Position numbers and translations under genes: made by a program. Positions 9,762 through 37,190 of a DNA stretch of 37,721 nucleotides are shown in pieces (within the stretch, counting starts at the first letter, position 1; every line of letters starts with the position of its first letter). The notes beneath the pieces are model-generated. The model worked only from the letters and a program-made list of their open reading frames with translations. It searched no databases and was not told the DNA's origin. The DNA lies in the IMG/VR virus record IMGVR_UViG_3300044614_001486, positions 1 through 37,721 of that record, one strand, 5' to 3'. The DNA comes from a virus (Duplodnaviria; Caudoviricetes).

Positions 9762-10408
9762 GGCCCTCGGAACTCTACTCGCGCATCCTTCCATACGTGG
9801 CTGGCTGCCCAGAGGCGATGGTCGACCAGGCCGTTGTAGATGCCGCTGCTGAGCTGGCAATGTCCAGCCAGTCGATCTTTGATGCGGCCCCTCGGATCCG
9901 CCTCGTTGAAGGCAAGTCGACATACTTCATCTCTGTCGACTCCGGGATGGCAGTAGAGTCCATCTCCTCTGTCTTCGGGCCTGGTGGCCGTGAGCTTCGC
10001 CATGCGCCAAGCCCGCAGGCGCTCTCGGACATGCTCCAAGACTGGCGCACCGCGGAGTCCAGCGAGCCGACTTACTACAGCACCTGGGGTTCTGCCGAAC
10101 AGGTGACCGTCTACCCTCGCCCAGCAAGGCTTAAGCCAGGCGCTGAGATTGTCGTGTACGGTACGTGGCGCCCAACCATGGACGCCACCTCATTTCCCGA
10201 TGAGTTTGGTCGCGAGCACTTCCTGACGATCGTCGAGGGCGCCAAGTCCAAGCTCATGTCCATGCCGGACAGGAAGTGGACTAACCTTCAGCTGGCCGGC
10301 GTGCACGCCAGCGGGTTTCAGTCCGGCATCATCGACGCCCGCATCAAGGCGCTACACGCCAACGCGGCGGGCTCCATCAAGGCCAGGCCTCAGCGATTCG
10401 GGGGCTGA
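9758..10408 (+). CDS. second adaptor / tail tubular protein A-like
   Basis: GTGA overlap. ILPYVAGCPE, VTVYPRP, IVEGAKSKLMSMPDRKWTN. Confidence 0.68.
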   Translation: MRPSELYSRILPYVAGCPEAMVDQAVVDAAAELAMSSQSIFDAAPRIRLVEGKSTYFISVDSGMAVESISSVFGPGGRELRHAPSPQALSDMLQDWRTAESSEPTYYSTWGSAEQVTVYPRPARLKPGAEIVVYGTWRPTMDATSFPDEFGREHFLTIVEGAKSKLMSMPDRKWTNLQLAGVHASGFQSGIIDARIKALHANAAGSIKARPQRFGG

Positions 10409-20175: not shown

Positions 20176-23100
20176 ATGCAAGATCCCATCCTGAGCCTGA
20201 TCGCCGAGTCCGCCAAAGAGCTTGGTGCATCGCAACCGCGTCCCGCCTCCCAGGCCGGCGGCGTCGAGGGATTCGTGCAGCAGTACGGCCCCGTGGCGCA
20301 GCGCGTCGGCGGCAAGATCGGCGTCGAGCCGGCGGTGCTGCTGGGGCAGTGGGGGCTTGAGACGGGCTGGGGGCGCAGCGTCATCCCGGGCACGAACAAC
20401 CTGGGCAACATCAAGGACTTCACCGGCGCCGGCCCGCAGGCCACCGACAACATGACCGGGTCGCGCGACGCGTACCGGGCCTACGAGTCGCCGGACAGCT
20501 TCGGGGAGGACTTCGCGGGCCTGATCGCAAGGCGCTACCGCACGGCGGCCGGATCTGGCTCTGACGCAGGCCGGTACTTCGCCGAGCTCAAGAAGGGCGG
20601 CTACGCGGAAGACCCGGACTACGTCAACAAGGGCGTTGCGGCCGCCAGGATGGCCGCGACCGCGATGGGCGGCAGTCTTGCCGCAGCACCGCCGCAGCAG
20701 CCGACCAGCAGGTTCGGCGGCCCGCGCAGCGAGATGCTCGATCCGCGGCCGCCGGCGCCCACGCGAAGCCGCGGCGTATTCGAGGCCATCAACGACACGG
20801 TCATCGAGTTCGGCAACGCTGTGGCCGGTGCCGCCGGCGCGGTTGGCAGCTTCGTCTCGCCCGGCAATCAGTTCTCTCAGGCCGTTGAAGAGTTCATCCA
20901 GTCCGGCGTCGAGAAGCAGAGCGACGTCGTGCGCGCCGAGAAGGAGCGCCTGGCTGCCGACATGGAGGCCGCCCCGGACGCCAGCGCCGAGGTCACCACG
21001 ATGCTCGGCTACATGGCGCGCAACCCGGCGCTGACAGCGGCCCAGGTTGCCGGCTCCTTTGTGCTGCCCGGCGCGGCCGTCAAGGGCGCGTCGAGCTTTG
21101 CGCAGGCGGTTGGTGTCGGCGCGCGCGGGGCTGCAAGAGCTGGCCTGGCGGGCGGCGCGGTGGCCGGCGCAACCATGGGCGGCGGCGACGCAGCCGGCAC
21201 AGCCTACGAGCTGGTCATGAAGTCCCCGGACGACGTCATTCTGCAGAGCCCCGATGCTCAGCAGCTGATCCGCCAGGGGATCACCGATCCGGCCCAGATC
21301 AAGGAGGCCATCGCCCAGAAGGCGGCCGCCCAGGCGCGCGTGCTGCCAGCGATCCTTGGCGCCGCCACCGGCGTCATCGGCGCCGAGCGCCTGCTGGCCG
21401 GCCTGCCTGGCGCCGGCCGCACCCGCGTCGGCAACGCGCTCGCCACCGGCGGCATCGAGGGCAGCACCGAAGCCGTCGAAGAGGCGGCCACCGTCATCGA
21501 GGGCCAGCGCGCCGCGGCGCAGTACAACCCCGAGATCGACTCGACCAAGGGCGCTGCCGGAGCGGCGACCATGGGCTTCGTTGGCGGCGCTGGCGTCGGC
21601 GCCGTCGCCGGGGCGCTGCAGTCGCCCGAGATGGCCCCCGTCATCCAGAAGGCTCAGGAGCCCAACAGCCCGCTGTCGAAGTCGGCCGTCGCTGGCACGG
21701 CGGCGTCTCCGCCTGTGGCGCCCGTGGCCCCGCCCGACCCAGCCGCCCGCCTAGCCGAGCTTGAGGCCATCGGCCAGCAGGGCGGCATCTTCACGCCCGA
21801 GCAGCGCAAGGAGTACGAGGCGCTCAATGCTTCGCGCGAGGCCACGCCGGGCGCCCAGCCCGACGAGATCGCCCCGCGCCTCGCCGCCATCAAGTCCGCC
21901 CTCAACCCGGGCGTGCTCGACGCCCTGCGCGCCGAGGGCTCCGACTACACCGCGAAGGACCTGCTCAAGGACCTGGCCGTCGCCTCCAGCAAGAGCGCCC
22001 AGCCGACCGCGCGCGAGCAGGCCCTGACCCGCATCGAGACCGGCCTGCAGTGGGCCGGCGCGAACCCGGCGCCCACGGTCGAGCCGAACATCGACGAGAT
22101 CACCGGCGCCACGCAGGGCGATGTGCGCCAGCCTGGCGCGCGCCCTGGCATCGGCCAGCTCCGCACCGGCGTGGATCGCGACGCAGCCCTGACGGCGCGC
22201 GCCCAGCAGGCCGGCACCCAGTTCGAGCGCGACCAGATTAACGCCCAGCGCAAGACGAACCTGGAGATGCGCCTCGGCGCCAGGCCGGCCAACAGCGCAC
22301 AGGCTGTCGGCGGCGAGAACAGGCCTCAGGCTGTAACGCCGGCCGAGCAGGCGCGCCTCGAGGCCGCCGCCCTTGGTGGCCAGGTCGATGCCAGCAAACG
22401 CCAGGACGAACCGCGCCAGGCCGTGATCGACCGCGCCCTGCGCAACGTCGAGGAGCGCGGCGGCGTGGCCAGCCCGGCCGAGGCGCAGATCTTCGCCGAG
22501 GCCGGCCTGGGCAAGCCCTACGACCGCATCGACGAGAGCCTGGCGCCGCCGCCGTCCACCGACGAGCGCCTGACGCAGGCCACGGGCATCGCCCTGGGCC
22601 GCCGGCCGCGCGAGACGGTGGTGCCGGGCCGGCAGGACGTCGCCGCCCAGGCCGCCGCCGAGCAGCAGGCCCGCAGCGACAGCCGCATGAAGCGCCTGGC
22701 CGAAGAGCGCGCCGCCGCGGCCGCCAAGCGCGACCAGGCGCAGCCCAAGGCGCCCGCCGGCGCGCCGCCGGCCGACGACGTGATCGCCGCGCTGAAGACC
22801 ATCCCCGCGCTGCGCACCGCCGAGCAGAAGGCCGTGGTCGACGCCGCCCGGGCGCGCATGACCGCCGAGCAGATGCGCGTTCTGCAGGACGCTGCGGTCA
22901 ACCCGGCCAACCTGAGCGCCACCGACAAGCTGCAGCTGCAGCAGATGCGGGAGCCTCGTCGGTCAGCCGAGAGGGCGCCGTGGCGCGAAGGTGAGACCAA
23001 CACGCTTGAGCAAGACGGCGCCACCATCGAGTACAACGTGCTCGACGACAAGGTGACGATCAACGACGCGGCCGTCCGCCCCGAGAGCCGCGGCCGCGGC

Positions 23101-24561
23101 GCCTTCCGGCGCGCCATGCAGTCCCTGCTTGCGCGTGCAGACGAGGCCGGCCTGCCGGTTGAGCTGATGGCGTTCGACGCCACAGGCTTCTCTGATGACG
23201 CGCGCCTTGAGCGCTTCTACGAGTCGCTCGGGTTCCGCACCGTCGGCAGGGACGATGGTGCCGCCATCATGCGCCGGCAGCCGTCTGCGGCCACCAAGTC
23301 AGCTGAGCGCGCCTCTTCAGCACCTGCTGAAACTGCGCCGCGCAGTGAAGCCGGCAGCCCAGCCGAACCCGCAGTCATCCGCAAGCGCCGCCGCCAGCTC
23401 GACGCCCTGGCCGACCAGGGCTACGAGACCGTCGAGCGCCGCGACGGCGTGTTCTTCATTCGCAATTCGCGAACCGGCGACGAGGTCCGCCTGAGCGGCC
23501 GCGCCGATGCCGCCCTGGCGCGCGCCGCGGTCAAGGCCATGGTCGACGCGCGCGCGCATGCCGCGGCCACGAGCCCGCAGAACGACCGCAAGGAGCCGAC
23601 GCCGGCGCAGAAGGCGGCCGGTAACTACAAACTCGGCATGCTTCGGTTCGATGGACTGGACATCGCCATCGAGAACCCCGAGGGCAGCGTTCGAAGCGGC
23701 ACGGACCGCGGCGGCAAGAAGTGGTCCGTTCGCATGAAGGCCCACTACGGCTATATCCGCCGAACCCTTGGCGCCGATGGCGACGGCGTGGACATCTACT
23801 TGCACGCATCGCCGACGGCCGGCGCCCCGGTGTTTGTCATCGATCAATACAACGATGACGGCACGTTCGATGAAACCAAATCGGTCGTCGGCGCTCAAAG
23901 TCGAGACGAGGCCATCCGCATCTACGACGCGCACTTCTCCGACGGATCCGGGCCGCGCCGCCGGGGCGATGTGACGCAGATGTCTGTCGACGAGTTCAAG
24001 TCGTGGGCTCGGTCGCCGGGGTACAACAACTGGCGAAAGGCGAGAAGTCGCTGCGCAGATCCCAAGGACCAGGCGTACCGGGAGTACGGGGCGAAGGGGA
24101 TCAAGATGAACGAGGAGTGGGCGGAGAGCTTCGCGGCGTTTCTGCGGGACGCGGGGCCGAGGCCGACTCCGGCGCACTCCCTGGATCGAATCAAGGGGGA
24201 CAAAGGGTACGAGCCGGGCAACGTACGCTGGGCAACCAGGATGGAGCAGAGTCAGAACAGGCCGGGCTTCGTGCACGCGCTGACGCACCGCGGCAAGACG
24301 ATGACATTGGCGGAGTGGGCTCGCGAGCTGGGAATTCCGGCCGGTCGGATCTACAAGAGGGTGCAGCAGGGCCTTTCGGCGAGCGAAGCCCTCGAGCCCG
24401 GCTTGATGCCTCGGGGGGCGCCTCCGCGCAACCTAACTCTGGACGGCGAGACGCTTCCACTCAAGGCGTGGGCGCGCAAGGTGGGGATTCATCCCGATAC
24501 GCTGCGGAAGCGCCTGGACAAGGGGATGGAGTTGCGTCAGGCGCTAATCAAGCCGGCGTAA
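20176..24561 (+). CDS. giant ejection/polyvalent protein A: GH73 (FlgJ-like) muramidase, Gly/Ala membrane region, GNAT, InPase-like domain; in this frame it runs into an HNH-type endonuclease
   Basis: GQWGLETGWG...NNLGNIK...GGYAEDPDY (about 20260-20640); GNAT VRPESRGRG...LERFYESLGF (about 22975-23280); AGNYKLG...IENPEGSVRSG...HYGYIRRTLGADGD (about 23560-24005). Confidence 0.85.
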   Translation: MQDPILSLIAESAKELGASQPRPASQAGGVEGFVQQYGPVAQRVGGKIGVEPAVLLGQWGLETGWGRSVIPGTNNLGNIKDFTGAGPQATDNMTGSRDAYRAYESPDSFGEDFAGLIARRYRTAAGSGSDAGRYFAELKKGGYAEDPDYVNKGVAAARMAATAMGGSLAAAPPQQPTSRFGGPRSEMLDPRPPAPTRSRGVFEAINDTVIEFGNAVAGAAGAVGSFVSPGNQFSQAVEEFIQSGVEKQSDVVRAEKERLAADMEAAPDASAEVTTMLGYMARNPALTAAQVAGSFVLPGAAVKGASSFAQAVGVGARGAARAGLAGGAVAGATMGGGDAAGTAYELVMKSPDDVILQSPDAQQLIRQGITDPAQIKEAIAQKAAAQARVLPAILGAATGVIGAERLLAGLPGAGRTRVGNALATGGIEGSTEAVEEAATVIEGQRAAAQYNPEIDSTKGAAGAATMGFVGGAGVGAVAGALQSPEMAPVIQKAQEPNSPLSKSAVAGTAASPPVAPVAPPDPAARLAELEAIGQQGGIFTPEQRKEYEALNASREATPGAQPDEIAPRLAAIKSALNPGVLDALRAEGSDYTAKDLLKDLAVASSKSAQPTAREQALTRIETGLQWAGANPAPTVEPNIDEITGATQGDVRQPGARPGIGQLRTGVDRDAALTARAQQAGTQFERDQINAQRKTNLEMRLGARPANSAQAVGGENRPQAVTPAEQARLEAAALGGQVDASKRQDEPRQAVIDRALRNVEERGGVASPAEAQIFAEAGLGKPYDRIDESLAPPPSTDERLTQATGIALGRRPRETVVPGRQDVAAQAAAEQQARSDSRMKRLAEERAAAAAKRDQAQPKAPAGAPPADDVIAALKTIPALRTAEQKAVVDAARARMTAEQMRVLQDAAVNPANLSATDKLQLQQMREPRRSAERAPWREGETNTLEQDGATIEYNVLDDKVTINDAAVRPESRGRGAFRRAMQSLLARADEAGLPVELMAFDATGFSDDARLERFYESLGFRTVGRDDGAAIMRRQPSAATKSAERASSAPAETAPRSEAGSPAEPAVIRKRRRQLDALADQGYETVERRDGVFFIRNSRTGDEVRLSGRADAALARAAVKAMVDARAHAAATSPQNDRKEPTPAQKAAGNYKLGMLRFDGLDIAIENPEGSVRSGTDRGGKKWSVRMKAHYGYIRRTLGADGDGVDIYLHASPTAGAPVFVIDQYNDDGTFDETKSVVGAQSRDEAIRIYDAHFSDGSGPRRRGDVTQMSVDEFKSWARSPGYNNWRKARSRCADPKDQAYREYGAKGIKMNEEWAESFAAFLRDAGPRPTPAHSLDRIKGDKGYEPGNVRWATRMEQSQNRPGFVHALTHRGKTMTLAEWARELGIPAGRIYKRVQQGLSASEALEPGLMPRGAPPRNLTLDGETLPLKAWARKVGIHPDTLRKRLDKGMELRQALIKPA

Positions 24562-27500
24562 CGCCGGCACTTTCCGTCGATCCCGACCGCGCGCCTGGCA
24601 CCACCTTCACCGTCCGCATGGACGGCAAGAACGTCGAGTTCAAGCGGGCCGACGTGTCGCAGCTCGCCGAGACCGAATCGCCCGAGCGCGATGGCAAGGC
24701 CCGCCGCATCAGCCGCAAGTCCGCAGCACTCATCAGCGCCATCGGCGCGGCGATGGGCAAGCGCGTGCAGTTCTTCGAAGACGTCAACGGCGAGCGCCCG
24801 GGCGACGGCTTCGTGAGGCCAGCCGACCCCGACACCATCTACCTGAACACGGTGTCGACGATCAACCCGCTGTCCGTCTTCGGGCACGAGTTCCTGCACA
24901 CGCTGCGCCAGACCAACCCGCAGGCCTGGGACGCCATCGCGGCTGTCGTGAAGACGCGCGTGAAGAACCCCAAGGGCTTCCGCCGCGACTACTACGGCGC
25001 CGAAGAGGCCGATGCCCGCGGCGACGGTGCGCTGAGCGAAGAGCGCGACGGCGAGCTCGAGGAGCTGGTCTCCGACCTCGGCGGCAACTTGATGGCCGAT
25101 CAGTCCTTCTGGCGCGAAGTATTCGCAAAAATCTATGCCGACAACGGCAAGGACGCCAAGGGCACCATCGCCCGCCTGATCGCGCAGCTGCAGGGCCTGA
25201 TCGACATGGCCGTGGCCGCAGTGAAGGGCCCGCGCTTCCGCGCAGACCGCTTCATCAGCGACATGGATGCCATCAGGGCGGCCTACCGCGACGGCCTGGC
25301 GGCTTACCTCAAGGAGAGCGGCAAGTCGAAGGCCGGGATGCAGGCGGAGGTGCTGCGCTCGGTAAATGGCGTGTCCATGAGTCCGGCCCGAAAGACCGAC
25401 GACAAAACGATTTATTGGCACGGGTCTCCAAGCGGCGACTTAAGGGGCGGTTCAACTGGCCTTCACCTTGGAACCAAGCTCGCCGCAACGCAGGCGCTAG
25501 AGGCTCGAATTGGAGTTCCAGCGACCGGAGAGTGGGACGGCGCCCGAGAGTATGGGTCAACCCTTCTGGCTGGAAAGAAGACGCTCAAGCGCCTGCAAGA
25601 GGAGCGCGGCTACTTCCTGACCACCGGCCTAAACGCCGGTTCGCGAGGCAACCCGGTCCCGGATGAAGACTACCTGCCGCAAGTTGAGTTGAAGTATGCC
25701 GACGGCACGCCAATGCCAATGAGCGTTCGCCCCAGTGTTCGCCCTTTCAGACTCAACACTGAGATGTCGAATTTCAAGTTCCAGCCGCATGAGGACTTCA
25801 AGGCCAATGGGTACATGTCCGCAGCCAAGAAGCGCGGAACGGCTCGTCGCGGCTACTACTACAGCAATGTCGCTGAAGACAGCGGCAGTATCTCTGTCGT
25901 GGTGCCGGATGGCAGTCATGTCACGCCCGTGGACGACAGTGAGGTCACCAAGTCCCCCGAGCGCGGCATCCACTTCAGCAAGAAGCAGCTCACCGCCATC
26001 AACGGCGCCTACTACGGCACCGGCCTGAAGGGCCTCGAGGCCGAGCGCCTGGCGCTGAGCGATGACCCGCGCCTCAAGACCCGCGTCTACTTCTACGTGG
26101 ACGAGGGCAATGGCGTGCGCCCCGAGGCTGGCGTCGGCGGCTACGCGCACGAGGTCGAGCTGCCGAAGCTCTACGACGCCAAGGCCAACGCCGAGAAGCT
26201 CTGGAACAGCGGCGACCTGAACGGCACCGAGAGCCGCATCCTCGATGCCGGCTACGCGGGCTACTTTGTCAAGAAGCACGAGACCGGGCAGGGCTTCGCG
26301 GTCGTCATCGGCGACGCGGCCAAGAGCATGCCGGCCAAGCCCATCGCGAACCCGAAGATCGCCGGCCCGATCTCGACCGGTGTGCCCGAGACCATCAAGG
26401 CCGCTCCGAGCTCGAAGGAGATCGACCTCATCGATGTGGGCAACATCCCTGGCGCCACGCTGCGCGCGGGCATGCTGCGCTTCCCGGCCGACAGCCGCGA
26501 ACAGGCCAACGCCGAGATGGCGCGCATCGGCTCCGACCTGCGCTTCAGCAAGGAGCGCCTGTCGACGCCGGCCGAAGAGGTGGCCGCGGTGCGCAAGCAG
26601 TACGAGGGCACCGACAAGTGGCTCAAGGCGCCAGACGGCACCGCTACGCGCTTGACTGAACGCCAGTGGCTGCACGTTCGTACGCCGAGCTTCAAGAAGT
26701 GGTTTGGCGACTTTGAGAAGTTCGCCGGCCGCCGAGGCGGGGTCTGGGCCGACGACAAGGGCGAGGTCTCCAAGGTCGTCGGCCGCAACGGCGAGCCGCT
26801 GGTCGTTTACCACGGCACCGACAAGGGCGGCTTCAGCGAGTTCTCGCGGCCCGGCGGAAGCCAGCGCGGAGACCTTGGCATCTTCACGACTGACGAGCGA
26901 GGCGTGGCGCGCACATACGTGCACCGCGGCCGCGCGCGCGACATTGGCCCTGGCGACATCGAGGAGGACGGCGAGTATCGCGACCCGGTGGCTGGCATCT
27001 ACGCCCTCTTCATCAACATCCGCAACCCGCAAGAGTCTGACTTCGAGGGCGCCAACTGGGACGGCAGCCGCAACGGCCAGTACATGGTCGTCGACGACGA
27101 CGGCGAGCAGCTCTACGCCGACGACGGCCGCGGCTACTTCGAAGACCGCGACGACGCCTTTTCTCTGGTAATGAGCAAGGGCGGCAACATCGAGCCGGCC
27201 CAGGATCACTACGAGACCACTGACAGCGTGGTGCGCGAAGCTCGTCGCAGCAAGAACGACGGCGCCATCATTCGCCAGGTGACGGACGATGGCGGTGGCG
27301 GCGGCGGCTGGTACGAGGCATCCGACGTCTTCGTGGCTTTCGAGCCCAACCAGGTCAAGAGCGCCGACTTCAACGACAGCACGTACAGCGCCGATGAGGA
27401 TGACATCCGCCGCAGCGCTGTTCGCGACGTAACTGAGGCGCCCGAGTTCAAGCGCTGGTTCGGCAACTCGAAGGTGGCGGACAGCCGGGGCCGGCCTCTG

Positions 27501-30287
27501 GCGGTGTACCACGGCAGCGGCTCTCCAAACATCCGAAGTTTCAGGCGGGGAGTTGATGGGGCCGGCTGGTTCTCTGAGTCCCCAGGGCTGGCTAGTCAAT
27601 TTGCCGAGGAGGGCGGCGGCGGACGAGGGGACACCGTCTACCCCGTCTACCTCGCGCTGCAAAACCCTCTCGACGTGAACACGCCGGAGGGCAGGGCCAT
27701 CATGGCTCAGGCCAACAATGACCGGCCAGGGCTTTCGACTGAAGAGCAGCTGAGCCCGCTCGGGTACGACGGAGTGATCGCAAATGAGGGAGGGGGGCGA
27801 GTCACATACCTCGCATTCCGCCCCGAGCAGATTAAGTCCGTCTTTAACCGCGGCACCTTCGACGCCACCGATCCGGACATCACGCGCAGCGTTGCGCGCG
27901 AGCCGCGTGAGCGTGTGCACGGATTTGAAGTCAGCACGCGCGAGCCGTACGCCAAGCCGACGAAGGACTTCGCGCCAGAAGACTCTCGACGCGACCTGCT
28001 GATCAGCGACTTTGCCTCGGGCCTTGGCCAGAGCAAGTGGCTCTCAGCCGTGTCGGAGCTGGTCGAAGGCTACCCGAACTACCGCGCCGCCGCGACCGCC
28101 AACGCGCCCGAGAAGAAGCTCGAGCGCACGGTTCGCCAGATGGTCGAGAACCTGCTGTGGCTGCACGACCAGGTGCCAGCCGACACGCGCAACCGCAGCA
28201 AGCTGTGGTACGACGGCGCCAGGGCGATCGCCGAGCGCTGGTCTCGTAAGTACAGCATCAGCGACGCGCAGGCTGCCGGCATCCTGGCCGTGCTGAGTCC
28301 GCAGAAGGACTGGTTCATGAATGTGAGCCTGGCCAACCGCGTAGCGGACATCATGACCGACCGGCAGGCCTTCCGCTGGTCGAAGCAGATGGACGAGACC
28401 TCCGCCAGGATCTTCGGCAAAGAGGCCTACCAGGAGGACATCGACGCGATCCGCGGCCAGACGCTGCAGGACCTTGATGACGCCTACCTGCGCGCGATGT
28501 GGCTCCGCGTCTACGACCAGGCTCACAACCCGAGTTCGTTCTACATCGTCTCGCCGGAGGGTGACTTCGTGGCCGAGGCGCGCACGAAGGACGGCACGCT
28601 CGGCCGCGTCGCGTGGGGCGGCAACAGCACCATCGCGAAGGCTGTCTCTGTCTTCGACAACGGGTCGTTTGAGAACATCAGCGCGCAGCTTGGCCGCAAG
28701 CACAAGGTTCGCAACTTCTACAACAACATCCTCGTGCCGAACAGCCCGAACGGGCACGTCACGATCGACACGCACGCTGTGGCGGCCGCGCTGCTGCGAC
28801 CGCTTTCTGGCAATTCGATCGAGGTGATGCACAACTTCGGCGGCCCGAAGAGCGCGCACGCAGGCCTCGAAGGGACGTACGCACTCTACGAGGAAGCCTA
28901 CCGCCGCGCAGCCGCAGAGCGTGGCATCCTGCCGCGTGAGATGCAGTCGATCGCCTGGGAGGCTGTGCGCGGCCTGTTCGTGCCCACCTTCAAGGCCCAG
29001 CGGCGCAACGTCGAAGCAGTCGACGGCGTGTGGACCCAATTCCAGAAAGGACGCCTGAGTTATGAAAACGCCCGAAAACAAGTCCTCGAACTTGCTGGAG
29101 GCATTGAAGCCCCTAGCTGGGCGGGACGCGACCCTGGCGCGTATGTTGAAGATGAACCGGCCGCTGACGATGGAGACCTGGCTGCGGATGGAGTACCCGC
29201 AGGGGATTCCGCGGCTGACGGCGGAGATTCTGGCCGGCGTGCCGGCGCCTCTGCGCGCCGCAGCCGAGCCCGAGACGGAGAGCGAGGGGATGAGGGCCGA
29301 AGCCTTGCGCCGCTTGCGGGCGCGCCGTCTATCGCAGGCGCAACCGGCCCCGACCCGCGACTCGTCGAAGTAGCCGAGCGGTACGCCGCCAGCAGGGGCA
29401 TCCAGCTCCGTCGCCAGGCGGAGTACGTCAAGGTCGACCCCGAGCGCGCCAAGCGCATCGCCGAGGCCTACGACGCGATGCCGCACGCGCCGCAAGACCC
29501 CGCGGTCAAGGCTGCGTACCAAGACCTCATCCAGCAGACGCGCGCGCAGTACGACGCCCTGGTGGGCGCGGGCTACAAGTTCTGGTTCATGGACCCGGAA
29601 GCCGACCCGTACGCCGGCAACCCGTGGAACGCGATGCGCGACCTGCGCGCCAACCAGCGCATGGCCGTCTTCCCGACCGCGGCCGGCTTCGGCACGAGCG
29701 ACTTCGACCCTGCGGCCAACCCGCTACTGGCCGACGCCGGCCTGGAGTGGGGCTTCGGCTCGCCGGACGGCCAGAAGAAGCGCGTGCTGGTCAACGATTT
29801 GTTCAGGGCAGTTCATGACGCCTTCGGTCACGGCCTGGAGGGCGCCGGCTTCCGCGCCGACGGAGAAGAAAACGCCTGGCAGGCCCACGTCCGGCTCTTC
29901 ACGGGCCCCGCGGTGGGCGCCATCACCAGCGAGACCCGCGGCCAGAATTCGTTCTTGAACTACGGCCCCCACGGCGAAAAGAACCGCACGGCCAAGGTCG
30001 CGGACACGGTCTTCGCCGATCAGAAGACCGGTCTCATGCCCGATTGGACCTGGACCGAGGGCCGCGCCGAGGATGCGGTTCAAGGCCCGTCTGCGCCGCC
30101 TTCGCCGCCCGCCGACCTGGTGAAGATCTTCGAAGACATGCGCAGCTCTCCCGGGGCCCGCAAGTCCGCAAAGGCGGCCGCCGCGGCGCACCCGCTTTCG
30201 GCCAAAATCCAAGAGATCGAGCGCGACTTCTTGGACATCCTCGACGAGCTTGAGACGTCACAAGTTCTGGGCATCAACTGCGACTAA
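24003..30287 (+). CDS. giant polyvalent protein B (start uncertain): HExxH zincin-like peptidase, four ART-like domains, helical glycosylase-like domain, HDxxGH domain
   Basis: GHEFLH (His at 24885-24899); YWHGSP, GIHFS, LVVYHGT and LAVYHGS modules with FK(K/R)WFG and Q(V/I)KS; WYDGA...LSPQKDW...KVRNFYNN...VTIDTH; FRAVHDAFGH (HDAFGH at 29814-29831). No clear SD at GTG 24003 or ATG 24618. Confidence 0.85.
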   Translation: MGSVAGVQQLAKGEKSLRRSQGPGVPGVRGEGDQDERGVGGELRGVSAGRGAEADSGALPGSNQGGQRVRAGQRTLGNQDGAESEQAGLRARADAPRQDDDIGGVGSRAGNSGRSDLQEGAAGPFGERSPRARLDASGGASAQPNSGRRDASTQGVGAQGGDSSRYAAEAPGQGDGVASGANQAGVTPALSVDPDRAPGTTFTVRMDGKNVEFKRADVSQLAETESPERDGKARRISRKSAALISAIGAAMGKRVQFFEDVNGERPGDGFVRPADPDTIYLNTVSTINPLSVFGHEFLHTLRQTNPQAWDAIAAVVKTRVKNPKGFRRDYYGAEEADARGDGALSEERDGELEELVSDLGGNLMADQSFWREVFAKIYADNGKDAKGTIARLIAQLQGLIDMAVAAVKGPRFRADRFISDMDAIRAAYRDGLAAYLKESGKSKAGMQAEVLRSVNGVSMSPARKTDDKTIYWHGSPSGDLRGGSTGLHLGTKLAATQALEARIGVPATGEWDGAREYGSTLLAGKKTLKRLQEERGYFLTTGLNAGSRGNPVPDEDYLPQVELKYADGTPMPMSVRPSVRPFRLNTEMSNFKFQPHEDFKANGYMSAAKKRGTARRGYYYSNVAEDSGSISVVVPDGSHVTPVDDSEVTKSPERGIHFSKKQLTAINGAYYGTGLKGLEAERLALSDDPRLKTRVYFYVDEGNGVRPEAGVGGYAHEVELPKLYDAKANAEKLWNSGDLNGTESRILDAGYAGYFVKKHETGQGFAVVIGDAAKSMPAKPIANPKIAGPISTGVPETIKAAPSSKEIDLIDVGNIPGATLRAGMLRFPADSREQANAEMARIGSDLRFSKERLSTPAEEVAAVRKQYEGTDKWLKAPDGTATRLTERQWLHVRTPSFKKWFGDFEKFAGRRGGVWADDKGEVSKVVGRNGEPLVVYHGTDKGGFSEFSRPGGSQRGDLGIFTTDERGVARTYVHRGRARDIGPGDIEEDGEYRDPVAGIYALFINIRNPQESDFEGANWDGSRNGQYMVVDDDGEQLYADDGRGYFEDRDDAFSLVMSKGGNIEPAQDHYETTDSVVREARRSKNDGAIIRQVTDDGGGGGGWYEASDVFVAFEPNQVKSADFNDSTYSADEDDIRRSAVRDVTEAPEFKRWFGNSKVADSRGRPLAVYHGSGSPNIRSFRRGVDGAGWFSESPGLASQFAEEGGGGRGDTVYPVYLALQNPLDVNTPEGRAIMAQANNDRPGLSTEEQLSPLGYDGVIANEGGGRVTYLAFRPEQIKSVFNRGTFDATDPDITRSVAREPRERVHGFEVSTREPYAKPTKDFAPEDSRRDLLISDFASGLGQSKWLSAVSELVEGYPNYRAAATANAPEKKLERTVRQMVENLLWLHDQVPADTRNRSKLWYDGARAIAERWSRKYSISDAQAAGILAVLSPQKDWFMNVSLANRVADIMTDRQAFRWSKQMDETSARIFGKEAYQEDIDAIRGQTLQDLDDAYLRAMWLRVYDQAHNPSSFYIVSPEGDFVAEARTKDGTLGRVAWGGNSTIAKAVSVFDNGSFENISAQLGRKHKVRNFYNNILVPNSPNGHVTIDTHAVAAALLRPLSGNSIEVMHNFGGPKSAHAGLEGTYALYEEAYRRAAAERGILPREMQSIAWEAVRGLFVPTFKAQRRNVEAVDGVWTQFQKGRLSYENARKQVLELAGGIEAPSWAGRDPGAYVEDEPAADDGDLAADGVPAGDSAADGGDSGRRAGASARRSRARDGERGDEGRSLAPLAGAPSIAGATGPDPRLVEVAERYAASRGIQLRRQAEYVKVDPERAKRIAEAYDAMPHAPQDPAVKAAYQDLIQQTRAQYDALVGAGYKFWFMDPEADPYAGNPWNAMRDLRANQRMAVFPTAAGFGTSDFDPAANPLLADAGLEWGFGSPDGQKKRVLVNDLFRAVHDAFGHGLEGAGFRADGEENAWQAHVRLFTGPAVGAITSETRGQNSFLNYGPHGEKNRTAKVADTVFADQKTGLMPDWTWTEGRAEDAVQGPSAPPSPPADLVKIFEDMRSSPGARKSAKAAAAAHPLSAKIQEIERDFLDILDELETSQVLGINCD
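24007..24561 (+). mobile_element. HNH-type homing endonuclease coding segment fused in frame to protein A and overlapping ORF B in another frame
   Basis: YNNWRKARSRCADPKDQAYREYGAKGI...SLDRIKGDKGYEPGNVRWAT, followed by two HTH repeats (TLAEWARELGI, PLKAWARKVGI). Confidence 0.85.
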
Positions 30288-31196
30288 TCCATGGCACAGA
30301 CCTGCACCTACAGCTTCACCGCCCCCGATGGCAAGAAGACCGTCCTTACCGGCCAAGCGGCCTTCAAGGCCTGGCTCGTGGCGGGTGGGCTGGAGTACCT
30401 GCGGGGGGCGGCGAATGATGCGCGGTCGAGCGCCGAGCGTGATTTGCAGTACCCACTGGCGCCGGCCGGCGAGCGCTACGAAGAAACCGGCATCAAGCCG
30501 CGGATGATGTCTCCCGACGAGTTCTTGGCCAGCGTGCGCCCGCTGGACATCGACGGCGCATCTCGCGACAACATCGAAGACCTGAAGCAGCACATCCTGT
30601 CGGGGCGCAAGCTCGACCCTCTGCACATCCGCAGCGATGGCAAAGAGGATGGCAGGCATCGGGCGGTGGCCGCCAAGGAGCTTGGCATCAAGCTGGTGCC
30701 GGTGATCGACGAACGCGGCGGCGCCCGAGCTAGCCGCGCGCGCGACGTCACGGAGACGCCTGAGTTCAAGCGCTGGTTTGGCGACAGCAAGGTGGTGGGC
30801 GCCGATGGTAGGCCGCTGGTTGTGTACCACGGGACCAATGCGGACTTTGATGCGTTCAAGACCGGCTTGAACAAGGCTTCTGGCGAGCGCGGCATCTTCT
30901 TTTCTCCAGACCCCGCTGTGGCTGCTGCCTACGCTGGCGTTGATCCGGAAGGAAACTTCAACGCTCCCGAGATTGGCAGCGTGATGCCGGTTTTCCTGTC
31001 GCTACAGAACCCGCTTGTCGTGGACTTTAAGGGCGACCGGCTAGGGCGCGTTGCAGCGATCAAGCGCGCACGCGATGGCGGCCACGATGGGGTGATTCTG
31101 AAAAATCACTACGATGCTGGTGGCGTGCAGGATCAGTACGTCGCCTTCCGCCCAGAGCAGATCAAGAGCGCCACCGGCAACCGCGGCACCTTCGAC
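27444..31196 (+). repeat. dispersed exact repeats at the ends of two ART cassettes
   Basis: GAGTTCAAGCGCTGGTT at 27444-27460 and 30762-30778; AACCGCGGCACCTTCGAC at 27846-27863 and 31179-31196. Confidence 0.8.
29062..29373 (+). CDS. nested small gene (103 aa) overprinted in the +1 frame of polyvalent protein B
   Basis: AAAGGA at 29046-29051, 10 nt before the ATG. Protein-like sequence (DATLARMLKMNRPLTMETWLRMEYPQGIP). The host frame turns into a D/G/A linker with A/T-ending codons over the same span. Confidence 0.65.
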   Translation: MKTPENKSSNLLEALKPLAGRDATLARMLKMNRPLTMETWLRMEYPQGIPRLTAEILAGVPAPLRAAAEPETESEGMRAEALRRLRARRLSQAQPAPTRDSSK

Positions 31197-34100
31197 CCCA
31201 ACGACCCCGACATCCGCCGCAGCGTAGAGCGCAAGCTCGCAGGCGGCGAGCCCATCCGCCTGTACCACGGCAGCGACGTCGAAATCAAGCAGTTCGACAA
31301 GACCAAAGCACGCACCGCGAAGCACATCTACCTAACAGACCAAGAGGAGACCGCGCGCAAGTACGGCGACAAGCTGATGCGCGTTGAGGCCAAGCCCAAG
31401 AACATGCTTTGGCTCGGCCCGGAAGACATCGGCCCGCGCGAGACCAAGGCGCTGCGCCGCGTGTTCGCCGACATCGGCGAGGACTACGGGTACGAGGACT
31501 TCGACACCTTCCTTGAGACGGTGACCGGCGCAACCGGAGAGCTGTACGGGGCCAACAGCCGATTCCAAGACGCCCTGATGGACGAGCTGTTCGCGGCGGG
31601 CTACGACGCGGTCGCGTTCCCAGACCCTGTGCCGGGTGGCGGCTGGTCGATGTCGTACGTCTTCGACGACCCTGCGCTTCTGACGGTGCGCGGGGATGAT
31701 GGGCTGAGCCAAGGCGACGCGGGGCGGGACATCCGCCGCTCCGCCGAGCGCGACGCCAACTTCGGCGGCGCCTACCTTGACAGCACATTGCGTCGCGCGC
31801 GCGAGCAATTCAGAACCAGCTTCGGCGTTGATTTTGGCCAGAGACTTACGCGCGACTACGAAATGGTCGACGTCGGCACACTAGAGCCAAGCAATGATGT
31901 CGACGAGGGCAGGGTCGATGAGCTTGTCGTCGCCATGTTTAACGAGAGCCCATTTGACAGCAAGATTCCGCCTATTTTCATCGACTCCGAGGGCAACATC
32001 CTTGACGGCAATCACCGCGTCGAGGCGGCAAAGAGGGCTGGCCTCTCGTCGGTGCCGGCGTTCGAGCTGTATGACGCCGACGAAGGGCCGCAGATCATCC
32101 GCTCCACCGAGCGCCCCTGGTACTACAGCCAACTCGCCCGCGCCATCGAAGGCGTCCCCGCGCGCCTGGACAACATGGCCGCCCCGCAGTGGGCCCAGTG
32201 GCTCAAGGCCAACGCCAGCAAGCTCGGCGTGAAGCAGGACGAGATCACCTGGTCCGGCATCGAAGACTTCCTCAGGCTCAAGGGCAAGGAGAAGGTCTCG
32301 AAGGAGGAGATCGGCGCGTACCTGGCAGAGGGTGGGGTGCGGGTGGAGGAGGTGACATCCCCGGTTGGCAAAAGCATCGGCGTCAGCGACTTTAGCCAAT
32401 ACACCCTCCCCGGCGGCACTGCCTACAGGGAGGTGCTGCTGACGCTGCCGGAGCCGAAGCGCGACCTTTCGCCCTACGAGAAGGACATCGTGGTTCGCCG
32501 CAAGGACACCGGCGTATACGACTTTGAGGCCACCTACAAGACGCCCGGCGGCCGCGAGCTGCGAGGCGTTGGCGACACAGAGGAGGAGGCCCGCGCAGGC
32601 GTTCGCTCTCTGCTCGCCATGATGCAGTTCACGGAGCCTGCCAGCTACAGGAGTAGCCACTGGGACCAGAAGAACGTCCTCGCCCACGTCCGCCTTAACG
32701 ATCGAGTTGATGCCGAGGGCCGGCGCACGTTGTTCGTGGAAGAGCTCCAGTCCGACGCAGGCGCCGATGTTCGCAAGAAAGGCTTCATCGACAGCTACAA
32801 GCTCGAAGACGTGCAGCCGACCGACGGACCGCTGCCCGACACCTTCTACTACCTCAAGACCCCCGACAACGTCTTCCAGATCCCGAAGTCGCGGCACGCC
32901 AGCGAGCAGGCTGCGCGCGAGTACATCGTCCGCGAGAAGAAGATCAACAGCGGTGGCGTGCCGCGCATGCCGTTCATCGACGACACCACCAAGTGGCTCA
33001 ACCTCGCCCTGAAGCGCGTCATCGCGATGGCCGCCACAGAAGGCTACGACGCGGTGGCGTTTGTGAATGGGGAGCAGAGCGCGGATCGGTATGACCTGAG
33101 CAAGCAGGTCGACGAGCTCGTCTGGTCAAGGTCAGATGACAAGTATTCCCTGACAGCTCGAAACCGAATCGACGGCGTCTCCCAAAAGATCGCCGACGAC
33201 GTGCCCGAGGGCCGCCTGGAGGACTACGTCGGAAAGGAGATCGCCAAGAAGATCGTTGCCGAGCGTGGCAAGCGATGGACGGCCACGTACCGCGGCCTCG
33301 ACCTCAAAGTCGGCGGCGAAGGCATGAAGGCCTTCTACGACAAGATCGTCCCCCAGGCCGCCAGTGCGCTGGTGAAGAAGATGGGCGGGGAGGGGATGAC
33401 CAAGGTCACGCTGCCGGGCGCCGACGCGACGCCCCTCGACTCTTACCGCGTTGGCGACGACGGCAATGGCGGCTATGCCGTCATCTGGCGCGCCACCGGA
33501 GAGCAGGTCTCCTCCGGCCACGCGACAAGGGCAGAGGCAAAGGCGGAGATGGTCAAGATCGCCGACAGCGACCCCGTCATCGCGCCGGCCTTCCTCATCA
33601 CCGACGAGATGCGCGACAAGGCCTCCGGCGGCATGCCGCTGTTCAGCCGCGAGAGGGCCATCGCCCTGCCAATGGCCGGCGACAAAGTTGATGGCCTCGT
33701 TGTGCGTGACGGCGTGCCGAACTATGGGAGCATTGAAGCGTCCCTGACTAACTACGAAGTCCTGCCAGGGATCCGCGAAGTTCCGTTTGACCTCTTTAGC
33801 GGCCCAGACCCCCAGACGGCACGCACCCGCAAGCTGGCAGCAGACATTGAGGAGTCTGGCGAGATAGCGCCGCTGATCGTGGTGTTTGATGGCGAGGACC
33901 ATTACATCCTTGAAGGCGCCCATCGCTTTGACGCCCTGCAGCACATTGGGAAAAAGTCGTTCCCGGCCAAGGTGGTGGTTGATAAGTCGGGGGCAGGCGA
34001 TGCGCGGCTGAGCCGCGAGCGCGACCCGCGCACCGAGACGCCGGAGTTCAGGGCCTGGTTCAAGCGCAGCAAGGTCACCGCTTCCGGCCGCGCCGGCGGC

Positions 34101-37100
34101 GTGCCGCGCGTCGTGTATCACGGGACTGGAGACGACTTCTCCAAGTTTGACCCGAGAATGGTCGACGGCTTTTCCGCCATCGCAGAAGGCTTTTACTTCA
34201 CATCCAGCCCGTACGAAGCCGAGCAATACGGCGATGTGCTGATGCCGGTCTATCTGTCGCTTCAGAACCCGGCGCCGAAGTCTGTTTGGGACCCAATGGC
34301 CAGGGCCATCGCACGCGGGGAGACCGACTCCGCGGAGGTTCGCGAGCGACTCCAGTCAATGGGGTACGACGGCATTGCTGGCTCAGATGACATGGCATCC
34401 GAGCTCGACACAAAGGTCTATGTCGCGTTCTGGCCGACCCAGATCAAATCCGCCATCGGCAACGACGGCAGCTACGACGAGACCGACCCCAGCATCCTCT
34501 CCAGCGCCGCGCGCAACTGGGAGAGCCCTGGCGCGTCGAAGTTCGACGACGTGGTCTACAAGATGCAGAACCGCCAGGTCGACCTCCTGCGCGTGCAGCA
34601 GGCCATCCAGGAGGCCGGCAAGCAGATCAGCGAGGACGCCAACACCTACCTCCGCGAAGAGCTCTTCCACGGCCGCGCCGCGAAGCGCACGCAGGACTTC
34701 ACCAAGCGCGAGCTCGAGCCCTTGACCGAGGAGATGGCCAAGCGCGGCCTGACGCTCGAGGAGCTGGACGAGTACCTGCACGCGCGCCACGCGCCAGAGG
34801 CGAACCGGCTCATCGCCGAGCGCAACCCCGACAGCCCGCTCCTGCAGGACGGCGGGTCCGGCCTCGACACCGCGCTCGCGCAGCAGTACATGTCCGACCT
34901 CGCGGCAGACAAGAAGGCCCACCTCGAGGCCGTCGCCGCCATGGTCGACAAGATCCTGGCCAAGACGCGCCAGCTGATGGTCGACTACGAGCTCGAGAGC
35001 CGCGACACCGTCAAGGGCTGGGGCGAGATGTTCCAGCACTACGTGCCGCTTATGCGCGAGGACGACGGCGACGCCCCGCAGCGCCTGGGATCTGGCCAGG
35101 GCTACAGCATCAAGGGCCGCGAGGTGAAGAGCCGCACCGGCTCGACCAAGAAGGTCGTCGACGTCTTCGCCAACATCGCCATGCAGCGAGAGCGCGTGAT
35201 CGTGCGCGGCGAGAAGAACCGTGTCGGCCAGGCGCTGGTGAACCTGGCGCGCGACAACGAGAACAGGGACTTCTGGACCGTCGACCTGGCGCCGACCACG
35301 CCGACCTACGACCCCAAGAAGGGCGTCGTCGTGCAGCGGCCGGACCCGATGTACAAGATGCGGCCCAACGTCGTCGTGGCCAAGTTCCGCGAGGAGGACG
35401 GGTCGGTCAAGGAGCACGCAGTCATCTTCAACGAGGGCAACGCGCGGGCCATGCGGACGGCGGCCGTGATGAAGAACCTGGAGATGGATCGGCTGGAGGG
35501 GCTGCTGGGCGCCAGCGCCGTGGTGACTCGGTACTTCGCCGCGATTTCTACCCAGTGGAACCCCGTCTTCGGTGTCGTGAACTTCATCCGCGACTTCCAG
35601 AACGTGCTCATCAACCTGAATGGCACCCCGCTGGACGGCAAGCAGTCGCAGGTGGCGAAAGAAGCCTGGGGCATGACCAAGGCCATCTGGACGAACCTGC
35701 GCAGCGGCAAGCTGGACACCGAGCGGCAGAAGCTGTGGGACGAGTTCCAGAGCGTCGGCGCGCAGACCGGCTTCCGTCAGATGTTCGCCGACAGCAAGGA
35801 CCGCGCCGACGACATCCGCTCGGCCATCAATCCCGACTACTGGATGGACTCGAAGCTGGGCAAGGTCTTCACCGCCAACGGCGTGCTGAAGGTGCCGGTG
35901 TCGAAGGCATCGAAGGTTGTGAGGGCTGGCTTCCAGGCCCTTTCGGATTACAACGAGACGCTGGAAAACTCGATGCGGCTCGCCGTCTACAAGGTGGCGA
36001 AAGAGTCCGGCATGTCCATTGAAAATGCTGCCTCTCTAGCAAAAAACGCCAGTGTTAACTTCAATCGCAAGGGACAAGTAGCGCAACAGGCCGGCGCCTT
36101 GTTTGCGTTTTACAACGCAGCATCTGCCGGCACCGCTCGCCTCGGCGAACTGCTGTTCACGATGGAGCCTGGGCAGATCAAGACCTTGCGCCTTTCTCGC
36201 GTCGGCAAGCGCATCGTCGCCGGCGGTGTGATGATCGGCGTGATGCAGGCCCTGGCCCTGGCGGCGGCGGGCTACGGCGAAGACGACCCGCCGCAGTTCA
36301 TGCGCGAGCGATCGATCATCATCCCGACGTTCGATGGTCGCTACGTGTCCATACCGATGCCGCTGGGCCTGCACGTTCTGCCCAACATTGGCCGCGTCGC
36401 CACGGAGTGGGCCATGGGTGGACTCGACAAGACGCCCGAGCGTGTCGTCGGCATGCTCGGCATGTTCGCTGACGCCTTCAACCCGATCGGCAACGCTGGC
36501 ATGTCGATGCAGACCATCGCACCCACCGCGCTGGACCCGCTGGTTGCGCTGACGGAGAACCGCGACTGGCAGGGCCGCCCGATCACGCGCGAGTCGATGA
36601 ACCCTGCGACGCCGGGGCACGCCCTGGCGCGCGACACCGCGACCTCTTGGGCCATCGCCATCGCGAAGGGCGTCAACACACTCACCGGCGGCAACGACTA
36701 CGTGGCTGGGGCGATCAGTCCTTCGCCAGACCAGGTCGACTACCTCATCGGCCAGCTGACTGGCGGCGTCGGCCGCGAGATCTCAAAGCTCGAGCAGACC
36801 ATCACCGCCACGGTGACGGGCGAAGAGCTGCCTATCTTCAAGGTCCCGCTGGTCGGCCGCTTCGGTGGCAACACGGCCAGCCAGGCAAGCGAGGGCTCGA
36901 ACTTCTACGGCAACGTGAAGCGCCTCAACGAGCTGGAGACGGAGATCAAGGGCCTGCAGCAGGACGGCAAGGCCTCGGAAGCCGCGCAGCTGCGGGCATC
37001 CAGGCCTGACGCCTACCTCATTGCGCAGGCCAACCGAGCCGAGCGCGACATCTCCAAGCTGCGCAAGGAGAAGTCGCGACTGGTGAAGGAGGGCGCGCCC

Positions 37101-37190
37101 CGCGACCAGGTGCGCGCCATCGAGGAGCGCATCACGGCGCGGATGGCGTCTCTGAACCGGGCCGTCGAGGCGCTCGGCGCTACGCGTTGA
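30291..37190 (+). CDS. giant polyvalent protein C: three ParB/Srx-like domains, three ART-like domains, EELQSD domain, LPD38-like C-terminal region
   Basis: EDGRHR, LDGNHR and LEGAHR ParB-like motifs; TPEF..WF...YHG...QIKS ART-PolyVal-like modules; YYSQL...LFVEELQSD; HYVPLMR, VNFNRKG, YVSIPMPLG, TENRDWQGRPI. Confidence 0.88.
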   Translation: MAQTCTYSFTAPDGKKTVLTGQAAFKAWLVAGGLEYLRGAANDARSSAERDLQYPLAPAGERYEETGIKPRMMSPDEFLASVRPLDIDGASRDNIEDLKQHILSGRKLDPLHIRSDGKEDGRHRAVAAKELGIKLVPVIDERGGARASRARDVTETPEFKRWFGDSKVVGADGRPLVVYHGTNADFDAFKTGLNKASGERGIFFSPDPAVAAAYAGVDPEGNFNAPEIGSVMPVFLSLQNPLVVDFKGDRLGRVAAIKRARDGGHDGVILKNHYDAGGVQDQYVAFRPEQIKSATGNRGTFDPNDPDIRRSVERKLAGGEPIRLYHGSDVEIKQFDKTKARTAKHIYLTDQEETARKYGDKLMRVEAKPKNMLWLGPEDIGPRETKALRRVFADIGEDYGYEDFDTFLETVTGATGELYGANSRFQDALMDELFAAGYDAVAFPDPVPGGGWSMSYVFDDPALLTVRGDDGLSQGDAGRDIRRSAERDANFGGAYLDSTLRRAREQFRTSFGVDFGQRLTRDYEMVDVGTLEPSNDVDEGRVDELVVAMFNESPFDSKIPPIFIDSEGNILDGNHRVEAAKRAGLSSVPAFELYDADEGPQIIRSTERPWYYSQLARAIEGVPARLDNMAAPQWAQWLKANASKLGVKQDEITWSGIEDFLRLKGKEKVSKEEIGAYLAEGGVRVEEVTSPVGKSIGVSDFSQYTLPGGTAYREVLLTLPEPKRDLSPYEKDIVVRRKDTGVYDFEATYKTPGGRELRGVGDTEEEARAGVRSLLAMMQFTEPASYRSSHWDQKNVLAHVRLNDRVDAEGRRTLFVEELQSDAGADVRKKGFIDSYKLEDVQPTDGPLPDTFYYLKTPDNVFQIPKSRHASEQAAREYIVREKKINSGGVPRMPFIDDTTKWLNLALKRVIAMAATEGYDAVAFVNGEQSADRYDLSKQVDELVWSRSDDKYSLTARNRIDGVSQKIADDVPEGRLEDYVGKEIAKKIVAERGKRWTATYRGLDLKVGGEGMKAFYDKIVPQAASALVKKMGGEGMTKVTLPGADATPLDSYRVGDDGNGGYAVIWRATGEQVSSGHATRAEAKAEMVKIADSDPVIAPAFLITDEMRDKASGGMPLFSRERAIALPMAGDKVDGLVVRDGVPNYGSIEASLTNYEVLPGIREVPFDLFSGPDPQTARTRKLAADIEESGEIAPLIVVFDGEDHYILEGAHRFDALQHIGKKSFPAKVVVDKSGAGDARLSRERDPRTETPEFRAWFKRSKVTASGRAGGVPRVVYHGTGDDFSKFDPRMVDGFSAIAEGFYFTSSPYEAEQYGDVLMPVYLSLQNPAPKSVWDPMARAIARGETDSAEVRERLQSMGYDGIAGSDDMASELDTKVYVAFWPTQIKSAIGNDGSYDETDPSILSSAARNWESPGASKFDDVVYKMQNRQVDLLRVQQAIQEAGKQISEDANTYLREELFHGRAAKRTQDFTKRELEPLTEEMAKRGLTLEELDEYLHARHAPEANRLIAERNPDSPLLQDGGSGLDTALAQQYMSDLAADKKAHLEAVAAMVDKILAKTRQLMVDYELESRDTVKGWGEMFQHYVPLMREDDGDAPQRLGSGQGYSIKGREVKSRTGSTKKVVDVFANIAMQRERVIVRGEKNRVGQALVNLARDNENRDFWTVDLAPTTPTYDPKKGVVVQRPDPMYKMRPNVVVAKFREEDGSVKEHAVIFNEGNARAMRTAAVMKNLEMDRLEGLLGASAVVTRYFAAISTQWNPVFGVVNFIRDFQNVLINLNGTPLDGKQSQVAKEAWGMTKAIWTNLRSGKLDTERQKLWDEFQSVGAQTGFRQMFADSKDRADDIRSAINPDYWMDSKLGKVFTANGVLKVPVSKASKVVRAGFQALSDYNETLENSMRLAVYKVAKESGMSIENAASLAKNASVNFNRKGQVAQQAGALFAFYNAASAGTARLGELLFTMEPGQIKTLRLSRVGKRIVAGGVMIGVMQALALAAAGYGEDDPPQFMRERSIIIPTFDGRYVSIPMPLGLHVLPNIGRVATEWAMGGLDKTPERVVGMLGMFADAFNPIGNAGMSMQTIAPTALDPLVALTENRDWQGRPITRESMNPATPGHALARDTATSWAIAIAKGVNTLTGGNDYVAGAISPSPDQVDYLIGQLTGGVGREISKLEQTITATVTGEELPIFKVPLVGRFGGNTASQASEGSNFYGNVKRLNELETEIKGLQQDGKASEAAQLRASRPDAYLIAQANRAERDISKLRKEKSRLVKEGAPRDQVRAIEERITARMASLNRAVEALGATR

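Follow-up and report, generated by a model that had tools for sequence, protein, structure and literature searches.

Polyvalent virion proteins have been proposed to carry many enzymes into the cell that is infected, and the locus described here raises the question of how a phage protects itself while such proteins are being synthesized. It lies in IMG/VR virus record IMGVR_UViG_3300044614_001486 (Duplodnaviria; Caudoviricetes); the window, by which we mean the whole stretch of DNA that was analyzed, is the entire 37.7-kb record (37,721 nucleotides; GC content ca. 0.65). Within it, a small open reading frame (ORF), P0001, is nested in the +1 frame of a giant polyvalent-protein gene, ORF B, directly behind the segment encoding a DUF7178 domain. 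A first-pass annotation of the window had proposed that this frame encodes an immunity protein against the upstream, glycosylase-like domain. Judged on its sequence features, the nested ORF behaves as a real gene, and on balance we lean toward the view that its product, here called the partner, is the cognate inhibitor of a virion-borne glycosylase.

The signals described earlier, namely an AAAGGA resembling a Shine-Dalgarno (SD) sequence, ATG 29062, and 103 codons to TAG, are all present (29046-29051; 29062-29373). The preference for G-ending codons is equally evident (64/104), and across the nested span the G+C content at third codon positions (GC3) reaches 0.87 for the nested frame, as against 0.54 for the host frame, whose flanking windows lie near 0.9. 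The host frame over this span indeed reads as a linker, of D/G/A/R composition. Among 23 alternative-frame ATG ORFs of at least 40 aa in the window's three giant ORFs, only two exceed the host GC3 by more than 0.1, the nested ORF and an HNH endonuclease gene (each by 0.32). The length of the nested ORF is by itself no evidence beyond chance; when the host peptide was recoded synonymously 5000 times, the +1 frame stayed open in 78% of cases, whereas recoding of the nested peptide left the host frame open in only 12%. The nested gene had been placed at the end of the glycosylase-like domain, which is correct, except that its ATG sits 59 nt upstream of that end, within the last helix of DUF7178. 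Its product had been described as globular and helical: AlphaFold2 (AF2) predicts a helical structure for residues 10-73 (mean predicted local distance difference test [pLDDT] 76.6), but only residues ca. 20-65 form a conserved core. No sigma-70 promoter was found ahead of the nested ORF, nor ahead of the one antisense copy described below.

Selection acts on different frames in different parts of the overlap. We estimated the ratio of nonsynonymous to synonymous substitution (dN/dS) for two clades free of gaps, of 32 and 18 distinct sequences, and between the window and one related locus, L004, the pairs being non-independent. Over the first 16 nested codons, which overlie the last helix of the domain, dN/dS is 0.18 and 0.38 in the host frame and 0.94 and 0.71 in the nested frame (0.18 and 0.94 being those of the 62-aa clade). 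Over the core the pattern is reversed, with values of 0.26 (32 sequences) and 0.21 (18 sequences) in the nested frame and 2.0 and 1.58 in the host frame, and variation is concentrated at nested third positions (0.25 and 0.22 vs 0.07-0.09). The window and L004 agree over codons 22-65 (nested 0.27, host 2.11), while both frames are weakly constrained over codons 66-103 (0.67 and 0.85). Thus, the comparison of both frames that the first-pass annotation had called for (core nested 0.21-0.27 vs host 1.6-2.1) identifies the nested core as the constrained frame and the linker as its passenger. The nested gene is therefore not overprinted on the linker, as had been claimed; only its first 16-21 codons are overprinted, and these on the last helix of the domain. 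Thymine is scarce at nested third positions (113/1472 and 55/882), as required to avoid stops in the host frame. The start region is also retained: AAA GGA ... TAT GA occurs in 5/5 listed members of the window's clade, with AAA, GGA, and TAT used at 6%, 7%, and 10% in the window's long ORFs, and the ATG holds one position in 62/62 loci of the main nested clade. Between clades the nested start varies (+7, +22, and +52 nt).

To count how often the two genes occur together, we collected DUF7178 loci from viral contigs (the best 80 of 211), from GTDB genomes (16 loci), and from cultured phages (three with a full-length match, five records in total). After truncated rows were removed and identical rows collapsed, 98 loci retained the domain end, 94 were evaluable, and 83 were distinct; a partner was called at a profile score of at least 10 bits, with a profile made partly from the scored rows. 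By this measure, a partner directly follows DUF7178 in 80/83 distinct loci (64/64 viral contigs, 15/16 GTDB loci, and 1/3 cultured phages), which bears out the expectation that homologs would follow the domain whether nested or free-standing. Four loci score just 10-20 bits, and none of 89 upstream control windows reaches 10 bits (maximum 7.6). Of 81 rows (the 80 viral loci plus the window), 78 extend at least 250 nt past the domain, and 77 of these carry a motif-bearing +1 ORF, so the frame is conserved in relatives; in the 78th (L078), the partner is in tandem and still linked behind an inserted extra domain. In the reverse direction, DUF7178 lies upstream in 46/47 loci found with the partner, the 47th being truncated where its contig stops; the contigs of this search and of the domain search overlap in many cases. 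A DNA-pattern scan for a different motif variant returned 27 loci, 26 with the domain upstream. The 27th (L170) was considered as an orphan partner and rejected, since the domain was found tail-to-tail on the opposite strand: the partner (11764-11930, + strand) and the domain (11941-13011, - strand) are convergent with overlapping stops, and the partner has its own GGAGG and GTG.

The layouts of 119 distinct loci show that an internal position in a polyprotein is not the only thing that calls for nesting, contrary to what had been supposed. In 58 loci the partner is nested and the host ORF ends at most 60 codons past the nested stop, most commonly 12 codons beyond it; in 37 it is nested and the host continues or runs off the locus; 16 are tandem in +1; three are in +2 (L078, L144, and L153), one is in frame 0 (L140), one is antisense (L170), and three have no partner. 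The phase is thus +1 in 111/116 distinct partner-bearing loci. In 12/12 listed short-tail loci the following gene, of ca. 900 aa, has an ATG that adjoins or overlaps the host stop, which suggests that translational coupling keeps the host frame open. Because it is found nested, in tandem in three frames, and once antisense, the partner is a separate protein. In a quick unrooted tree of 53 domains, the tandem layout requires four changes (starred branches force two) and nested-internal forms are scattered over deep branches; whether tandem is ancestral is not settled by this tree. Conservation of the partner extends to ca. 38% domain identity, and the nested form is present in two cultured bacteria, Jannaschia seohaensis DSM 25227 and Pseudofulvimonas gallinarii DSM 21944.

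A profile search (E up to 0.001) places P0001 in a family of 970 clusters at 50% identity. No above-cutoff match gave the family a name in Pfam (32 members searched), PHROGs (6), NCBIfam (5), or PADLOC (4); the ESM Atlas returned no usable match for residues 15-68, a translated search with one partner found no match in cultured phages, and the PDB holds no fold above Z 3.5 for the partner model, with Ugi, p56, and SAUGI absent among the listed matches. BFVD contains one unnamed 77-aa look-alike (A0A516LVL4, E 0.1). The family is not invisible to gene callers, as had been proposed, in that P0001 and the 970 related clusters exist as called proteins; the proposal does hold for OP947163.1 (L147, phage LS06-2018-MD07), where a divergent nested partner (16 bits) is unannotated beneath a giant coding sequence labeled only "methyltransferase". 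A six-repeat match, P0065, proved to be a low-complexity repeat protein and was kept out of the broad profile. Three other members (P0013, P0115, and P0061) have two partner-like stretches or long acidic extensions and are possibly orphan immunity genes.

The upstream domain is predicted to have the fold of a helix-hairpin-helix (HhH) glycosylase. Its AF2 model is helical (pLDDT 90.5, predicted template modeling score 0.88), and of the top 24 matches found with VIA-align, 22 are HhH glycosylases and two are a queuine salvage enzyme. The best is the Thermotoga OGG 3n0u (Z 8.7, root-mean-square deviation [rmsd] 3.9, 189 residues aligned); the first unrelated match follows at Z 3.8. By sequence, the domain profile found no glycosylase in the PDB. 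Bifunctional HhH-GPD enzymes use a catalytic pair consisting of a Lys at the helix start after the hairpin and an Asp just before the next helix, and K216 and D237 of DUF7178 are placed on the model in the same way, which we take to be an equivalent arrangement. The long form seen in the window carries an insert of ca. 100 residues. Short stand-alone DUF7178 proteins (ca. 200 aa), which in two phages bear the labels "glycosylase" and "N-glycosylase/DNA lyase", apparently lack this insert subdomain and have no partner.

We then modeled the 354-aa domain together with partner residues 15-69, using a 48-row alignment for each and three controls. The pair received an interaction score (ipSAE) of 0.72 (runs 0.72, 0.71, and 0.78), compared with 0.00 for the best control; structure prediction of the pair, as suggested earlier, supports binding but does not establish it. 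At least 76% of contacts recur across runs, and the partner has a pLDDT of 80 or more. On the domain the predicted interface comprises residues 81-82, 118-150, 186-194, 209-216, 237-238, and 250-260, including eight invariant residues (P81, Q82, W186, G212, K216, D237, T238, and V256), and on P0001 residues 21-33 and 41-59. Shared-nucleotide covariation is not the source of this signal, because the last helix of the domain lies outside the interface. Partner cores are net acidic in 42/48 (median 6), like DNA-mimic inhibitors. The partner is predicted to bind across the catalytic cleft of DUF7178.

These data lead us to favor, with modest confidence, a nested partner that acts as the cognate inhibitor of a virion-borne glycosylase. 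The partner would be made on the same late mRNA, by ribosomes that initiate internally, at the start embedded in the domain's last helix; with the mRNA shared and the start so placed, it would be present wherever the enzyme is synthesized, and because the start overlaps the domain end, domain and partner would travel as one module. Inhibition would protect the phage's own DNA during polyprotein synthesis. By analogy with MuF toxin-immunity pairs and with virion delivery of polyvalent proteins, the polyprotein would probably then be packaged and injected without the partner, and the glycosylase/apurinic-apyrimidinic (AP) lyase, once freed, would act against the DNA of the host or of a rival in the next cell; we infer the packaging, the release, and the toxicity alike. 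Where the polyprotein has to continue, or has to extend as far as the next virion gene, whose start it overlaps, the host frame would remain open across the partner gene and be read as a junk linker. More tentatively, and with somewhat less than even probability, the pair may represent a module found widely in phages: an HhH glycosylase injected from the virion would damage host or rival DNA, and a dedicated inhibitor from an unnamed family of ca. 1000 clusters, its gene nested in the polyprotein, would restrain it.

Several observations weigh against this interpretation. Regarding the fold, the best Z of 8.7 barely exceeds the range that VIA-align gives for a common arrangement, and Foldseek returned no match at E 0.001 for the DUF7178 model, with AGOG at ranks 7 and 10. 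Regarding the complex, the calibration, in which the mark was reached by 116/157 solved complexes and 2/215 mismatched pairs, is only roughly valid for alignments of the kind used here; the most confident contacts (142-146 and 188-193) lie beside the cleft rather than on K216/D237; interface conservation (0.70) is only slightly above the domain mean (0.67); the window's own partner core is net neutral; and a model of this kind cannot separate an inhibitor from an activator. The dependence among dN/dS pairs and the derivation of the partner profile in part from the loci that it scored also count here. Finally, the cultured phages zth2-2 and CRP-738 retain Lys and Asp with no detectable partner in 1719 ORFs scanned, using a profile that recovered 6/7 divergent long-domain test loci, and L143 is also without a clear partner.

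Of the alternatives, the one that survives best, although we consider it unlikely, gives the partner the role of an accessory or activating subunit, or of a folding chaperone, for a domain that may modify bases in the manner of HhH-fold amino acid:DNA transferases. Linkage and the complex model fit this equally well; the best contacts fall on the insert subdomain apparently missing from the partnerless short proteins of two phages, and PaMx11 gp46/PUGT is among the structural matches (Z 3.5, rmsd 4.9, 168 aligned). Glycosylases, however, rank far higher than PUGT, the model places partner residues over K216 and D237, and the long domain alone seems to suffice in two phages. Moreover, a subunit on which the domain depended should often have become fused to it, yet the partner is in frame in 0/120 domain proteins, and no longer fused partners were found in a search that gives weak evidence on this point.

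Rather less probable still is a non-toxic repair glycosylase of the 8-oxoguanine type that cleans the injected phage genome, with a partner that times or damps it; the pair would then be enzyme and inhibitor, not toxin and antitoxin. That the best structural matches are OGG2 and AGOG is in keeping with such a role, as are the glycosylase annotations of the short relatives and the apparent dispensability of the partner in two phages. But repair glycosylases can normally do without a dedicated inhibitor encoded next to them, the linkage survives inversion and domain insertion, and the neighboring domains are conflict domains such as ART-PolyVal.

We regard as very improbable a reading in which the +1 ORF supplies the end of a frameshift product, with the domain and a small C-terminal module joined in one chain and no separate initiation. 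The predominance of the +1 phase would be expected of such a product, and 2/150 called proteins do have domain sequence in frame with the partner: P0087, a fusion, and P0148, with ca. 30 domain residues. P0087 is known from a single contig and is either a natural fusion or a frameshift error. Free-standing copies, by contrast, occur in frame 0, in +2, and once in antisense, this last with its own GGAGG and GTG, and the SD and ATG are maintained through rare host codons. A chance open frame in a GC-rich linker, with no second protein, would account for the length of the ORF and is contradicted by the GC3 flip, the dN/dS switch, the depth of conservation, and the free-standing homologs, so that we give it almost no weight.

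A close parallel in gene layout is lambda Rz/Rz1, in which a +1-frame gene lies fully inside the gene of its interaction partner. Here, unlike there, the partner lies mostly over the linker that follows one polyprotein domain, and the pair also occurs in tandem and in antisense. In function, the likeness would be to the MuF polymorphic toxin/immunity pairs of temperate phages, where an enzymatic domain on a head-associated phage protein is matched by a cognate small neutralizing protein (PMC12226406). Both have a domain on a phage protein that is enzymatic, or here predicted to be so, and a cognate small partner gene, whose neutralizing role at our locus would hold by analogy; the present pair differs in that MuF is missing (no match in ORF B at E 0.01), the enzyme, of predicted HhH fold, is internal to a polyvalent protein rather than a C-terminal toxin behind MuF, and the partner gene usually lies nested out of frame. 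Phage polyvalent proteins have been described as giant multidomain ORFs with proposed virion delivery (Iyer et al. 2017, PMC5512222), and the window resembles them in its giant ORFs in a virion block with ART-PolyVal, InPase, LPD38, ParB, and lysozyme-like domains. No nested partner gene was found in the parts of that account that we covered, and the words "glycosylase" and "overlap" are absent from its main text; its supplements may name the domain otherwise.

Known glycosylase inhibitors differ as well. Ugi, p56, and SAUGI are small, mostly acidic proteins that block the DNA-binding cleft of the enzyme (PMC3711442, PMC3902945, PMC3794593); they target host uracil-DNA glycosylase (UDG), which has another fold, whereas the helical partner modeled here is predicted to bind, and is genetically linked to, the phage's own enzyme of predicted HhH fold. 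The Dag antiphage glycosylases are host HhH defenses against modified phage DNA (bioRxiv 2025.10.29.685425). With these and with OGG2, AGOG, and EndoIII, DUF7178 shares the predicted fold and, presumably, the Lys/Asp arrangement, and with the Dags the apparent reuse of HhH enzymes as weapons; unlike the Dags, it is phage-encoded, carries an insert of ca. 100 residues, and has a partner. Our literature searches, from which subscription journals were largely absent, returned no account of DUF7178 or of the domain-partner pair. They also returned no protein inhibitor of an HhH glycosylase, the glycosylase inhibitors described in the parts of the sources that we covered being directed at UDG or deoxyinosine repair. 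The pair, if its members do act as effector and immunity protein, joins two uncharacterized families.

The window sequence was found in lake-water metagenomes, and none of the listed source runs is RNA. Alongside an N4-gp56-type capsid gene and an SU10 adaptor, it carries three giant ORFs in which polyvalent-protein domains are found; ORF B has several disparate conflict domains in one giant ORF with virion genes nearby, as is characteristic of polyvalent proteins. Past the nested gene, ORF B continues into a phrog_3170-like domain (29376-30284) with HDAFGHG and GEENAW motifs that resemble a zinc-metallopeptidase-type motif. Host GC3 also falls at 25353-25950 (to 0.64-0.72), with stops in both other frames; the probable cause is a domain gained recently rather than a nested gene. 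The positions of all features are given below.

Features of the window around the DUF7178-partner pair and in the neighboring giant ORFs
Feature	Position	Strand	Remarks
ORF A	20176-24561		glucosaminidase, GNAT, InPase, then HNH
ORF B, host polyvalent protein	24003-30287	+	two ART-PolyVal, DUF7178, others; inside virion gene block with N4-gp56-type capsid gene
HNH endonuclease, in frame with ORF A, +1 to B frame	24010..24561	+	phrog_3377 E 8e-52
DUF7178 (PF23802), long form, 354 aa	28059..29120	+	Pfam E 4.3e-27; predicted HhH-glycosylase fold
K216 of domain, start of second HhH-like helix	28704..28706	+	invariant 48/48; presumed catalytic
D237 of TIDTH motif	28767..28769	+	invariant 48/48; within predicted interface; presumed catalytic
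SD-like AAAGGA	29046..29051	+	10 nt before ATG 29062; built from rare host codons AAA GGA
Nested gene P0001, 103 aa, +1 frame of ORF 24003-30287	29062..29373	+	ATG 29062, TAG 29371-29373
Nested N-terminal ca. 20 codons, overprinted on DUF7178 last helix	29062..29120	+	weakly constrained in nested frame
Partner conserved core, ca. residues 20-65, D..L..M....P.T.E.YL.LAYP.G.P......E..LP	29119..29256	+	predicted binding part
Host-frame D/G/A/R linker carrying polyprotein over nested gene	29121..29373	+	composition, selection pattern
ORF C	30291-37190		ART-PolyVal, ParB, LPD38

The HNH overlap had been likened to the nested gene in its frame geometry, and it does lie in +1 to ORF B; its features identify it, however, as a separate mobile insertion with the same geometry, and not as a second immunity cassette. 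The HNH is absent from the A-B junction in 2/2 relatives examined (L151 and L152), where A and B form a single ORF (at least 3333 and at least 3113 codons, respectively). The window's copy forms an in-frame fusion with ORF A, and the first GTG of ORF B lacks an SD, leaving B without an evident start; a CGA AAG hexamer near 24033 is a candidate -1 shift site. Three lake runs yield contigs that terminate at its two borders, so that the HNH may be polymorphic or mis-joined; among the 31 of 165 contig pieces listed, none bridges 24000-24010. In L151, a second HNH (9263-9799) is nested in +1 in the middle of a conserved domain (TSETRGQNS / GEHNRSAKV), with the host frame open for ca. 185 codons, and seems to be a mobile endonuclease that inserted without breaking the host frame.

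The analysis assigns a predicted fold and a likely role both to DUF7178 and to an unnamed family of small proteins. With the same two genes found nested, in tandem, and in antisense, the loci also offer a natural series for tracing how overlaps between genes come about. If the partner is indeed an inhibitor of the domain that precedes it, out-of-frame genes in linkers would mark those polyvalent-protein domains that are dangerous to their own phage.

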